A stretch of 64,000 nucleotides of DNA from Escherichia coli O157:H7 (GTDB lineage: Bacteria; Pseudomonadota; Gammaproteobacteria; Enterobacterales; Enterobacteriaceae): assembly GCF_013167455.1 (NCBI RefSeq), contig NZ_CP038328.1; one strand, written 5' to 3'. Positions within the stretch are counted from its first letter, which is position 1. Each line of letters begins with the position of its first letter. Position numbers: made by a program. Positions 12,001 through 15,000 of this stretch are shown in pieces.

Positions 12001-15000
12001 CTGCACCCGTGCTTTTCGTCCGCGCGCCAGACGGTCGAGATCGCCGCTTAAGGCACCAAGGTCGGCTACCGCATGGGGTTTACCGCTAATCGGTTTGCTG
12101 TAGCGGATATGCGCATCCGCCAGAATAATCGTTCCGCCGAGGTGGCGTTCGCGCAGCATCAGCCAGATAAGCCCCCAACCGGTGAGCGTCGCCAGTGAGA
12201 ATAAACTCCCGGCAAACAGCGTATGGTGCGGATTCTGATTGCCGGTTTCTGGCATGGTAGTGATAAATTTTTGCCCGGTATATTGCTGAATGCGCACGCC
12301 CATTTTTTCACTAAGCGGGATATGTTCGTACCACGCCTGTTGCAGCTGCGCGCACCAGTCGCCGCGATGCAAAATATCATCCAGAGTGGCGACGGGCTTA
12401 ATCATCAAAAAATGGCGAATCGGCGTGGTGGTTGGCGTGGTGATTTCTCCCTGATTAACAAACCCCAGCTTGGCGAAAAACTCCACCGCGTCTTCACGGG
12501 CGCTACAGGTCACGCGCTTAACGCCTTCCTGACGCGCCACCGACTCCAGGGTCATCGCCATCAGCGTGCCTAACCCTTTGTCCTGCACGTCGGGATGAAC
12601 GGCCATAAAGCGAATGGACGCTTCATTGTCGGCATTAATATACAGTCGGCCTACCGCCACCAGATTACCCTGCTCGTCGACGACCATCTGGTGATGCGCC
12701 ATCGCATCCCACGCGTCGCGTTCCGAACCTTTTGGTTGATGCAGGGGCTTACGCAACATTTCCCAGCGAAACTGATAGTAACGCTCTAATTCTTCTTCTG
12801 TTTGTGGAACCCGAAGGTGATACATAGCGATACTCTCTCTTGTTTCCCGTGACAACCCTGGAAGCTGGCTCATACCTGCAACCAGAATGTCACGGGGCCA
12901 TCATTGACCAGCGATACCTGCATATCCGCAGCGAAGCGTCCTGTTTGCGTGTTCATCTCTTGCTGACGGCAGCGTTCGACGAAATAGTCATATAACGCCT
13001 CTGCGCGATCCGGTGATGCACCTTTGGAGAAACTTGGGCGCATCCCCCGTTCGGTATCTGCGGCGAGGGTAAACTGGGAAACCACCAGCACACTGCCGCC
13101 CGCCTGTTGCACGTTGAGATTCATCTTGCCTTCGGCATCGCTAAAGATGCGGTAGCCGAGCACACGCTCGCACAGACGGTTTGCTTTCTGTTCGTCGTCA
13201 TCCTTTTCGACACCCAATAACACCAAAAGTCCCGCACCAATTTCGCCCGTCACTTCTCCCTCCACGGTGACGCTGGCACGGGTTACGCGTTGAATTAATG
13301 CAATCATGGTTCGTCGTCTTCTTCTTGTTCAGCTGCTTGTTTTAGTTTGCGGTATTCCCCGAGAGTGACAGTAATTTCCGCGCCAAGCAAGACGATACAC
13401 CATGTCCAGTAGACCCAAACAAAGAGAATGGGGATCACCGCCAGCACACCGTAAATGAGCTGATATGACGGGAACATGGTGATATAAAGCGCGAAACCTT
13501 TCTTTCCTGCTTCGAACAGGAGTGCAGCAACAAACGCGCCGACAATCGCGTCGCGGTTAGGTACGCGGATGGTAGGAACAATGCTGTACAGCAACCAGAA
13601 GGAGATCCACGACAACAGCAACGGAAAAATACGCAGCACGTTGTCGATGACAGTATTGAGATCGCTCGCCCAGCGCAGGGAGAGCAAATAGGAACTGATC
13701 GCCAGACTGGCCCCTGCCAGCAGCGGCCCCAGCGTTAAAATCATCCAGTACACGGCAAACGAGTAAATTTTGGGTCGCGCTCGTTTACTGCGCCAGATGG
13801 TATTCAACGCGCTATCGATGGAGTACATCAACAATAACGCGGTGACGATCAGCCCGCACGCCCCAACGGCGGTCATCTTGTTGGAATTGGCAACAAATTG
13901 TTCGATATACCGCTGAATAACATCGCCAGTAGCAGGCAGAAAGTTGGCAAAAATAAAGTGACGTAACTGAATGCTGACGTCGGAAAACATGGGAAAAGCG
14001 GCGAAAAGCGCAAAAACAACGGCAACCAGCGGCACTAATGAGAGCAACGACACATAGGCAAGGTTACCTGCCAGGGTTGTCATATTGTCCTCATCAATGC
14101 GTTGCCAGAGTAGTTTTAGCCAGGCCCATAGTGGACGGGTACGGTGCCTGGCTTTGTCCTGAATGGTTTTTAGCATAACACCTTCGCGAAATAGTCCGGG
14201 ATGGTGGTTTTATCTTTCACCAGAATACTGGTAATGCCCAGCTGATTAGCTCCTTCTATATTATCGGCGTTATCGTCGAAAAAGACCGTATCGCTGGGTG
14301 AAAAACCTTCCGCCTGCAAAACATGCTGGTAAATTCGAGCTTCAGGTTTGCGCATCCCCAGATCTTGCGACAGATAGATATGGTCAGCAGCATCACGAAT
14401 TTCCGGGTATTCTTCCGGCCAGAAGGTGGTATGCAGGCGGTTAGTATTGGAAAGCACCACCACGCGATGCCCCTGCTCACGCAGTTTATGCATGATGGCG
14501 ATCACTTCCGGGCGCAGCGCAACAAACACCGCCTGCCAGCCGTGAGAGAACTGCTCGTAGCTTAGCGGTAGAGCCATCTCATGACACAGCGCCTCTGCGA
14601 ACGCTTCGTCGCTAATTTCCCCACGCTCATGCTGATGAAACGCCTCCCCCATATGAAAACTCTTCTTAAGCGTAGCCAGCGGAATACGCGTTAAATCGCT
14701 CCAGGTTCCCAGCACACGGTTAAAGTCGATATCGACAATCACATTACCTAAATCAAAGATATAGAGCATTTTTGCCTCCTTTCGCGCCACAAGAAATTAA
14801 CTGTAGCGGGAAAGGATGGGTTTGGCTATGTGGCAAGGTATGAAGCCAGGTCAACAGTCACAAAAATCTACGCGTCTTCCTGGGGAAGGATGATTTCAAT
14901 TTGGCTGTCTTGTAAGCGTGATTTTAGCGCAGCGGGCGGCAGCTCGTCGGTAAAGAGCGCGGTGACCTGTGCCACGTTACCAATTTCAACCGCCGCCGAA

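Follow-up and report, generated by a model that had tools for sequence, protein, structure and literature searches.

The window analysed here, a 64,000-nt stretch of the Escherichia coli O157:H7 genome (matched at 100% identity), carries four neighbouring minus-strand genes joined by overlapping stop and start codons, namely yihX, yihY, dtd and fabY (also named yiiD). The first of them, yihX (14170..14769), encodes a HAD-family glucose-1-phosphatase of 199 aa (PGAP, with Pfam HAD matches) and is followed by yihY (13304..14176), which encodes a BrkB/YihY-family inner-membrane protein of 290 aa (Pfam PF03631, NCBIfam PRK01637), by dtd (12870..13307), which encodes a D-aminoacyl-tRNA deacylase of 145 aa (Pfam PF02580), and by fabY, whose product (MadA) is annotated by PGAP as a short form of 313 aa starting from Met17 (11884..12825; Pfam GNAT and YiiD_C). 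Along the operon, the spacings are -7, -4 and -4 in this order, the last one becoming +44 for the short fabY form. Note that the operon and its exact overlaps are already recorded and represent a common layout: the four-gene operon yihXY-dtd-yiiD is named in a RegulonDB-derived list (PMC4421995), and the K-12 distances of -7/-4/-4 for these genes are tabulated in supplement file 3 of a 2023 study (PMC10666635).

The yihX/yihY and yihY/dtd junctions

The only strong Shine-Dalgarno (SD) sequence of the operon belongs to yihX: an AGGAGG (14775..14780, minus strand) lies 5 nt before the ATG, with an anti-SD duplex energy of -11.6 kcal/mol in the window and a median of -8.7 over 78 loci, 100% of which are at or below -4.4. 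A GTG at 14790, which opens the raw ORF, was rejected as the yihX start given the invariant ATG at 14769 and the PGAP annotation; the gene itself is 3-periodic, with codon-position entropies of 0.16/0.06/0.92. At its 3′ end, the yihX stop TAA (14172-14170) and the yihY ATG (14176-14174) are joined in the sequence ATGCTAA, a 7-nt overlap (14170..14176, minus strand), and the yihY TGA and the dtd ATG form a 4-nt ATGA (13304..13307, minus strand). Both overlaps had been proposed in the initial annotation and are real, since each motif was read directly.

The conservation of these junctions was followed in 80 Enterobacteriaceae species (about 80 loci, 81 or 79 depending on the junction), in which the overlaps of the operon persist in 72–78 of about 80 loci. 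Indeed, among 81 loci, yihX and yihY are spaced by -7 in 72 and by -4 (ATGA) in another 6, and the -4 overlap of yihY and dtd is conserved in 78 of 81. The codon-position entropies of yihY are 0.59/0.37/1.17. The overlapped ATGs take their first base from rare A-ending codons, with TTA or CTA (Leu) supplying the ‘A’ of the yihY ATG, CCA ending yihY in 70 loci (11.8% of Pro codons), and GTA or ATA ending dtd; each represents 4.5–12% of its codon family, and A occupies 14% of third positions overall. That such rare codons keep the overlapped ATGs points to selection acting on the individual overlaps.

In addition, neither yihY nor dtd displays an SD sequence of its own, in E. coli as well as in about 80 relatives. 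The energy before yihY is -3.9 in the window with a median of -1.2 over 80 loci (background median of -2.8), and it is -1.9 before dtd. The dtd start region is A-rich. It also appears unusually unstructured when compared to shuffled sequences (z = +1.82, -60/+40 context). When folded in a 100-nt context, the dtd AUG of E. coli is predicted to be paired (unpaired probability of 0.005), but the median over species reaches 0.53.

The first homologue search gave only relatives with at least 83% identity, and more distant ones were obtained from a search of 50%-cluster representatives. Six genomic contexts of distant YihY relatives (46–52% identity) were informative, and four of them, representing five loci (L084, L085, L086/87 and L088, with L086 and L087 counted as one context), possess the yihY-dtd ATGA without yihX, which argues that yihY-dtd is the older core of the operon. 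Some of the YihY relatives are long (about 435 aa), and a YihY-Dtd fusion was considered for them and rejected, as Pfam gives a BrkB domain only.

Two candidate starts for fabY

The dtd stop codon and an upstream in-frame fabY ATG also form an ATGA (12870..12873, minus strand), which opens a long form of 329 aa. The 4-nt overlap of dtd and yiiD first described at this place therefore stands in part: the ATGA is present, but it holds just for the K-12-style long form reaching 12873, whereas RefSeq/PGAP starts the protein at Met17 (12825), which the dtd stop precedes by 44 nt. Thus, the annotated fabY/MadA start differs between K-12 (329 aa) and RefSeq/PGAP (313 aa), the MadA literature numbers residues by the long form, and the dtd/fabY junction is less certain than it appears.

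Both candidate starts are conserved, each with its own signal. For the upstream one, the in-frame ATG occurs in about 72 of 79 loci and the final dtd codon is GTA (64 loci) or ATA (8 loci), despite a usage of 9.7% among Val codons and 9.1% among Ile codons, respectively; the SD energy of this start is -3.4. For Met17, whose ATG is invariant, the SD-like sequence AAGAGAGAG (12833..12841, minus strand) has its 3′ end 7 nt upstream, and its AAGAGAG motif displays a zero-entropy GAGAG core across 71 loci. The corresponding energy is -5.1, and values at or below -4.4 are observed in 99% of 79 loci vs 22% of the background.

An explanation in which the operon has two true overlaps only, fabY is translated solely from Met17 (313 aa) with its own ribosome binding site, and the dtd/fabY ATGA is an artefact of the K-12 long-form annotation deserves a sizeable, if minority, share of our confidence. 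Besides the PGAP start and the AAGAGAG signal, it agrees with the codon-position entropies, which are 0.14/0.10/0.78 after Met17 vs 0.50/0.58/0.70 in the 16-codon extension, a segment that displays neither coding periodicity nor evolution of a coding kind. The open frame of the extension was rejected as evidence of coding, for it does not exceed chance: 64 of 71 loci are likewise open in frame +2, and so are 59% of shuffles. Moreover, distant FabY orthologues of 307–316 aa start with MF(R/K)..., align to Met17 and begin 50–130 nt after dtd, the GNAT domain starts around residue 19–31 of the long form (PMC8666670; Pfam), and in five species (L044, L053, L066, L069 and L081) the overlap position offers neither a usable ATG nor an equivalent start. 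However, this explanation leaves aside the rare GTA/ATA codons that end dtd in 72 of 79 species, the upstream ATG retained in one locus (L077) in which the dtd stop has shifted, and the in-ORF indels, whose lengths are divisible by 3 (+3 in L037/68/72, -3 in L058).

Overall, periodicity, the AAGAGAG motif and the distant orthologues favour Met17 as the conserved FabY N-terminus, and the persistence of the ATGA suggests that fabY has a further start, coupled to dtd. Such a dual start would recall the N-terminal proteoforms detected by retapamulin Ribo-seq (e.g., bioRxiv 10.1101/520783), in that two in-frame starts (12873 and 12825) would serve one gene; unlike in these profiled cases, dual use of the fabY starts is deduced from the conserved signal that each start possesses. 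The start-site and N-terminal supplements that we searched contain no fabY/yiiD entry. In any case, the dtd to fabY link is weaker than the links from yihX to yihY and from yihY to dtd because the conserved N-terminus has its own SD-like AAGAGAG.

It should be noticed that the minimum free energy fold places a hairpin around the dtd stop (12847..12895, minus strand), with the AUGA in the apical loop. When compared to spacer shuffles, its z-score is -5.9 in the window and -6.0 and -7.9 in two further Escherichia, whereas the median of 68 loci is -1.26; RNAalifold found no conserved structure at this junction, and pair counting gave no covariation beyond shuffles. Since the hairpin is strong in Escherichia alone, it was rejected as a conserved coupling device.

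Proposed coupled translation along the operon

Taken together, we consider it likely, from the arrangement of these signals, that the known yihX-yihY-dtd-fabY operon is translated with termination-reinitiation and that fabY is reached by two routes. Ribosomes would be loaded at the single strong SD of yihX, would reinitiate at the yihX stop on the yihY AUG located 4 nt upstream of that stop (ATGCTAA), and would then reinitiate at the yihY stop on the overlapping dtd AUG (ATGA). The absence of an SD before yihY and dtd argues that both would be made mostly through termination-reinitiation, or through unfolding of their start regions by upstream ribosomes, which makes coupled translation from yihX to yihY and dtd plausible, with ribosomes probably passing directly from gene to gene. 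For fabY, the overlapping AUG could yield a coupled FabY of 329 aa, 16 residues longer, and Met17 with its invariant AAGAGAG would be served by new ribosomes. Coupling requires an overlap or a very short distance (PMC10666635), as found for yihX/yihY (-7), for yihY/dtd (-4) and, for the long form only, at dtd/fabY; the 44-nt gap to Met17 would abolish reinitiation, since about 20 nt already does so (PMC10666635). Our literature search found no published coupling tests of these gene pairs, and searches specific to the operon (yihZ, rbn, yihY-dtd) led to nothing other than accounts of how RNase BN had been mis-annotated.

A start of this kind has a phage counterpart: Ivey-Hoyle and Steege (1989, cited in PMC12548453) are reported to have described that gene VII of phage f1 possesses an inherently defective, SD-less start that becomes functional through coupling. 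As proposed for yihY and dtd, this SD-less start lies beside an upstream stop; it belongs to a phage gene and was demonstrated by experiment, whereas we infer its yihY/dtd counterpart. Closer to our case, five E. coli ATGA pairs were tested by Huber et al. (2019), among which three were strictly coupled, one partly and one (bioBF) not (PMC6728339). The hyfHI, astDB and ydbH/ynbE pairs of that study are likewise co-directional, on one transcript and overlapping by a 4-nt ATGA, with the terminating ribosome expected to start the downstream gene, but their coupling was tested with premature-stop reporters, whereas that of yihX, yihY and dtd is proposed from the sequence. In addition, four of the five pairs benefited from an intragenic SD (PMC6728339), in contrast to the SD-less yihY and dtd, and the 7-nt yihX/yihY overlap is less common than the ATGA of the tested pairs. 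The classical trpB-trpA case (cited in PMC6728339 and PMC12548453) displays the same stop/start proximity linking neighbouring cistrons; however, the trp pairs are subunits of one enzyme or pathway, while the present operon combines a phosphatase with a membrane protein, a tRNA deacylase and a malonyl-ACP decarboxylase/GNAT protein, which are functionally unrelated.

Conversely, the overlaps may be passive by-products of gene packing and of start/stop drift, with free 30S subunits initiating on each cistron and no coupling, an explanation that we regard as unlikely. It finds a precedent in the E. coli operon genes bioB and bioF, whose ATGA overlap goes with de novo, uncoupled initiation of bioF (PMC6728339), so that an overlap alone is no proof of coupling. 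Nor are the products known to form a complex (they are flagged ‘CMPLX not’ in supplement file 3 of PMC10666635), and the unstructured, A-rich dtd start could, from the modelled folding, permit SD-independent de novo initiation. Furthermore, the overlap frequency in the window corresponds to the genomic norm, with 6–7 of the 36 co-directional CDS pairs overlapping (17–19%), compared to about 15% of pairs in most prokaryotic groups (PMC6728339) and to 24% of E. coli unidirectional pairs within -8 to +6 nt (PMC10666635). The overlap pattern as such is therefore typical and not exceptional; co-directional genes of E. coli are most often spaced by short overlaps, and the description of such overlaps has little importance beyond good annotation. 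However, several observations speak against passive packing: yihY and dtd are SD-less in about 80 species, at energies weaker than the background median; rare codons hold the overlapped ATGs in at least 90% of species, in contrast to the free variation of other synonymous sites; and there is the survival of the yihY-dtd ATGA down to 46–52% YihY identity.

Beyond the coupled operon that we prefer, a bolder proposal can be formulated, which we hold to be doubtful: yihY-dtd would be an ancient, SD-less and obligatorily coupled pair, from Enterobacteriaceae to these distant relatives and independent of yihX and fabY, and Enterobacteriaceae would produce two FabY/MadA proteoforms, the 329-aa one only via ribosomes coming from dtd and the 313-aa one independently. 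If true, the uncharacterised BrkB-family protein YihY and Dtd would be co-produced and functionally linked, e.g., in D-amino acid handling or export. More modestly, the conserved SD-less pair is a cheap hint, and a possible lead, to YihY function.

Transcription of the operon and other overlaps in the window

The co-transcription of yihX-yihY-dtd-yiiD, already put forward in the initial annotation, is supported by the RegulonDB-derived operon list, by the transcription start site (TSS) data and by our scans. Among the four genes, only yihX has a TSS in the table comparing EDL933 Cappable-seq with RegulonDB (PMC10469882), which is restricted to genes for which both strains have a TSS. Its table S5 gives yihX TSSs at 24 and 144 nt upstream in EDL933, the former corresponding to about position 14793 (minus strand), 24 nt before the yihX ATG and within the 98-nt csqR-yihX intergenic region (14770..14867, minus strand), and the latter falling inside csqR. 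Transcription would thus proceed mainly from a promoter just 5′ of yihX, to which read-through, or else a start located further upstream within csqR, would add some transcripts. Our scan of the gene strand from 11500 to 15800 detected no sigma-70-like promoter, and the terminator-like matches of the minus strand amounted to two weak 5-bp stems, one located inside fabY and one inside csqR, with none in between the four genes; moreover, the same-strand adjacency of the genes leaves no space between them for a terminator and a promoter. The operon may end at a candidate terminator, a GC-rich 10-bp hairpin (11854..11877, minus strand) located 7 nt past the fabY stop, with a fold z-score of -2.1 and no clear U-run, which the terminator scan did not call. 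Note that the supplements of TRAINSPOTTER 2026 and SMRT-Cappable-seq 2018 contain no entries for these genes. That separate internal promoters drive most expression, the overlap chain then saying little on co-expression, seems very improbable in view of the single four-gene operon of RegulonDB, the TSS listed for yihX only in that table and the lack of promoter-like sites on the scanned gene strand, even if EDL933 displays thousands of internal TSSs (PMC10469882) and the fdhE gene of the same window has one.

Indeed, the 4-nt overlaps first noted at fdoH/fdoI (6397..6400) and fdoI/fdhE (7029..7032), both on the plus strand and used here as comparison cases, are confirmed as ATGA at the right coordinates, and an fdhE TSS lies 133 nt upstream, within fdoI, in both K-12 and EDL933 (PMC10469882 table S5), which means that an ATGA overlap and an internal promoter are compatible. 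For the two other pairs listed with them, the genes do overlap, but by a length other than the announced 4 bp. At the pepQ/yigZ junction (58279..58283, minus strand), the sequence TGATG gives a 1-nt overlap with the annotated yigZ ATG (58281-58279), and positions 58281-58284 read GTGA, which would imply a GTG start. Similarly, mobA and mobB overlap by 19 nt as annotated (49508..49526, plus strand), and the ATGA at 49523-49526 corresponds to the internal Met6 of MobB.

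Overlapping junctions and their conservation

The initial annotation proposed a chain of overlapping stop/start junctions with translational coupling, and our reading of the sequence indicated that it was essentially right for the focal region and imprecise in its side claims. Indeed, on the minus strand, yihX (14769-14170 in the RefSeq annotation; HAD phosphatase by Pfam) ends in ...TTA TGC TAA, which contains the yihY ATG (ATGCTAA, 7 nt, 14170-14176), and yihY (14176-13304; BrkB/YihY membrane protein) ends in ...CCA TGA, sharing ATGA (13304-13307) with the start of dtd (13307-12870; D-Tyr-tRNA deacylase). 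At the third junction, ...GTA TGA of dtd does share ATGA (12870-12873) with an in-frame ATG of the minus-strand fabY ORF (formerly yiiD; MadA; GNAT and YiiD_C domains by Pfam), but the genes overlap only for the K-12-style 329-aa form; the PGAP start (12825, Met17 of the long form, 313 aa) lies 44 nt past the dtd stop. The fdoH/fdoI (6397-6400) and fdoI/fdhE (7029-7032) junctions were both ATGA, as claimed, whereas the 4-nt overlaps reported for pepQ/yigZ and mobA/mobB were not recovered: the former is TGATG, with 1 nt shared when the annotated ATG (58281-58279) is used, GTGA presuming a GTG start, and the annotated mobA and mobB share 19 nt, with MobB Met6 coinciding with the ATGA found at the end of mobA. 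Note that protein P0004, a 434-aa ORF with BrkB and Tyr_Deacylase domains from an ENA assembly, is equivalent to 12870-14176, and this YihY-Dtd fusion call most likely results from a 1-nt error or a frameshift at the ATGA junction.

Such an overlap pattern is not unusual. The window has 36 co-directional CDS pairs, of which 6-7 (17-19%) overlap, and the share is ~15% in most prokaryotic groups (Huber et al., PMC6728339), while 707 of 2,987 E. coli unidirectional pairs (24%) lie at -8 to +6 nt, with -4 as the commonest class (PMC10666635). All the essentials were already recorded in databases and the literature: the supplement of PMC10666635 gives the K-12 distances (csqR-yihX +98, yihX-yihY -7, yihY-dtd -4, dtd-fabY -4) and marks all four csqR-to-fabY pairs as outside any heteromeric complex, and the four-gene operons yihXY-dtd-yiiD and pepQ-yigZ-trkH-hemG appear in a RegulonDB-derived list (PMC4421995). 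Here too, RefSeq places csqR upstream of yihX on the minus strand, with a 98-nt gap between them.

The 3.5 kb surrounding the overlaps match E. coli O157:H7 chromosomes at 100% identity; among 5,426 complete genomes of E. coli, 5,421 contain them. Using one genome per species, our scan gathered 80 Enterobacteriaceae loci (YihY identity 83-99%), all of which retained the order yihX-yihY-dtd-fabY. The yihX/yihY distance was -7 in 72/81 loci and -4 (ATGA) in 6/81, yihY/dtd was -4 in 78/81, and ATGA with an in-frame ATG was present at dtd/fabY in ~72/79. The upstream gene supplies the 'A' of every overlapped ATG through a rare codon ending in A, namely CCA as last yihY codon in 70 loci (CCA makes up 11.8% of the Pro codons of these genes), GTA (64) or ATA (8) as last dtd codon (9.7% and 9.1% within their codon families), and TTA or CTA before TGY-TAA in yihX (10.6% and 4.5%); overall, only 14% of third codon positions are A. 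Because these rare codons are kept while the remaining synonymous sites of the alignments vary freely, the overlapped start codons appear to be under purifying selection, with the reservation that species are not independent samples.

Around this conserved block, a low-GC (35-47%) two-ORF island lies immediately 3' of fabY (9659-11572, minus strand), whose proteins (297/330 aa and 304 aa) gave no Pfam or NCBIfam match; among the 5,426 complete genomes of E. coli, only 1,061 have it at full length, and ~2,000 more have part of it. PGAP also annotates a TauE/SafE sulfite-exporter family gene (~20836-21711) between yihQ and yihR, within the sulfoquinovose catabolism cluster. In addition, window coordinates are offset from those of NZ_AP018488.1 by a value that changes by 3 nt across the rrn operon (region 49.5-58.3 kb of the window), and therefore the window is not exactly that strain along its full length.

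Transcription and ribosome-binding signals

Among the four genes, only yihX has transcription start sites (TSSs), 24 and 144 nt upstream, in a table comparing EDL933 Cappable-seq with RegulonDB for genes having a TSS in both strains (PMC10469882). In a consensus scan, the gene strand had no promoter-like site, and the minus-strand terminator-like matches were only weak 5-bp stems within fabY and csqR, none of them between the four genes; a GC-rich hairpin lies 3' of the fabY stop (11854-11877). As an example of another arrangement, fdhE has a TSS 133 nt upstream, within fdoI (~6896, plus strand), in both K-12 (RegulonDB) and EDL933 (Cappable-seq) despite its ATGA; thus, an overlap is compatible with an internal promoter.

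The yihX start shows a strong Shine-Dalgarno (SD) sequence (AGGAGG; anti-SD energy -11.6 kcal/mol, and ≤ -4.4 in 100% of loci), and no SD was seen for yihY (-3.9 kcal/mol; median -1.2) or dtd (-1.9 kcal/mol), random 20-mers having a median of -2.8 kcal/mol. The three start codons are invariant, and the initial 30 codons display normal codon periodicity. Coupling by termination-reinitiation predicts just such a layout, with one strong entry site and then two overlapped starts that lack an SD. Coupling is nonetheless an inference: among five E. coli ATGA pairs assayed, three were strictly coupled, one partly, and bioBF not (PMC6728339). Around the dtd start, the sequence is rich in A and, in one context, less structured than shuffled sequences (z = +1.8), and a longer context predicts a paired dtd AUG for E. 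coli, but not for most species. As a proposal, co-transcription and coupling are reasonable, being supported for yihX→yihY→dtd and weaker for dtd→fabY.

The raw yihX ORF opens at GTG 14790 (206 aa; region 14770-14790, minus strand), and the EDL933 TSS at -24 falls just upstream of this GTG; the annotated start, the invariance of its ATG and the placement of the SD all point to ATG 14769 (199 aa). In a predicted leader hairpin (~14775-14816, minus strand), CCUUUCC pairs with the AGGAGG, and the modelled accessibility of the SD is 0.60 with the 24-nt leader versus 0.03 when the leader has 100 nt (as for csqR read-through or the TSS at -144). Efficient yihX translation may therefore be limited to proximal-promoter transcripts.

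The yihY-dtd pair in distant relatives

For YihY clusters at 46-52% identity, we followed the representatives to their contigs. The yihY/dtd ATGA is common to L084, L085, L086/L087 and L088, while 7 nt separate the genes in L083 and no dtd follows yihY in L090. None of these loci carries yihX upstream of yihY. The ancient overlapped pair is thus yihY-dtd, around which yihX and fabY were added. YihY proteins still more remote, at 44% identity or of the long form with 418 aa, had no dtd neighbour. YihY was formerly mis-assigned as RNase BN (PMC2330054), and the conserved coupling proposed here is a hint, rather than evidence, of a functional link between YihY and Dtd.

The start of fabY

Start annotations of fabY conflict (12823-12873, minus strand), with 329 aa in K-12-style records and 313 aa in RefSeq/PGAP, and residue numbering in the MadA literature follows the long form. 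On four counts, the comparisons point to Met17 as the N-terminus conserved in FabY. First, entropy by codon position is 0.14/0.10/0.78 past Met17 versus 0.50/0.58/0.70 in the 16-codon extension, whose open frame is not significant as coding evidence. Second, within the extension only the GAGAG core of AAGAGAG is invariant, with zero synonymous changes across 71 species and its 3' end 7 nt before the Met17 ATG; the anti-SD energy of AAGAGAG is -5.1 kcal/mol (≤ -4.4 in 99% of loci versus 22% of background). Third, in five species (L044, L053, L066, L069 and L081) the overlap position offers neither a usable ATG nor an equivalent start, owing to insertions, point changes or a deletion of 30 nt. 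Fourth, FabY of distant relatives (307-316 aa, 50-130 nt past dtd) begins with MFRLITPETEQQLEDYYHFRW or MFKIVTPKTPQELERYFHFRW, in alignment with E. coli Met17.

Use of the upstream ATG (12873) is in turn suggested by the rare codons that maintain it, by its retention in L077 though the dtd stop is shifted, and by indels of +3 and -3, which are in-frame. The best reading is probably that fabY has two in-frame starts: termination-reinitiation at the dtd/fabY ATGA would yield the 329-aa protein, and independent SD-led initiation at Met17 would provide the second start. Since distances of ~20 nt already eliminate reinitiation (PMC10666635), the 44-nt gap between dtd and Met17 is too great for it.

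The dtd stop lies within a hairpin (12847-12895, minus strand, ~-32 kcal/mol) whose apical tetraloop contains AUGA. This hairpin is strong in Escherichia only (z = -5.9 to -7.9) and weak elsewhere, without covariation support or support in most genera. The dtd-fabY spacer also holds insertions of ~60 and ~260 nt in Buttiauxella izardii and Intestinirhabdus alba (L081 4807-4915; L066 4807-5115), one of them with a REP-like palindrome (GGTAGGTCGGATATGCGTAGCGTCATCCGAC), which abolish the dtd/fabY overlap, yet AAGAGAG followed by the Met17 ATG is retained.
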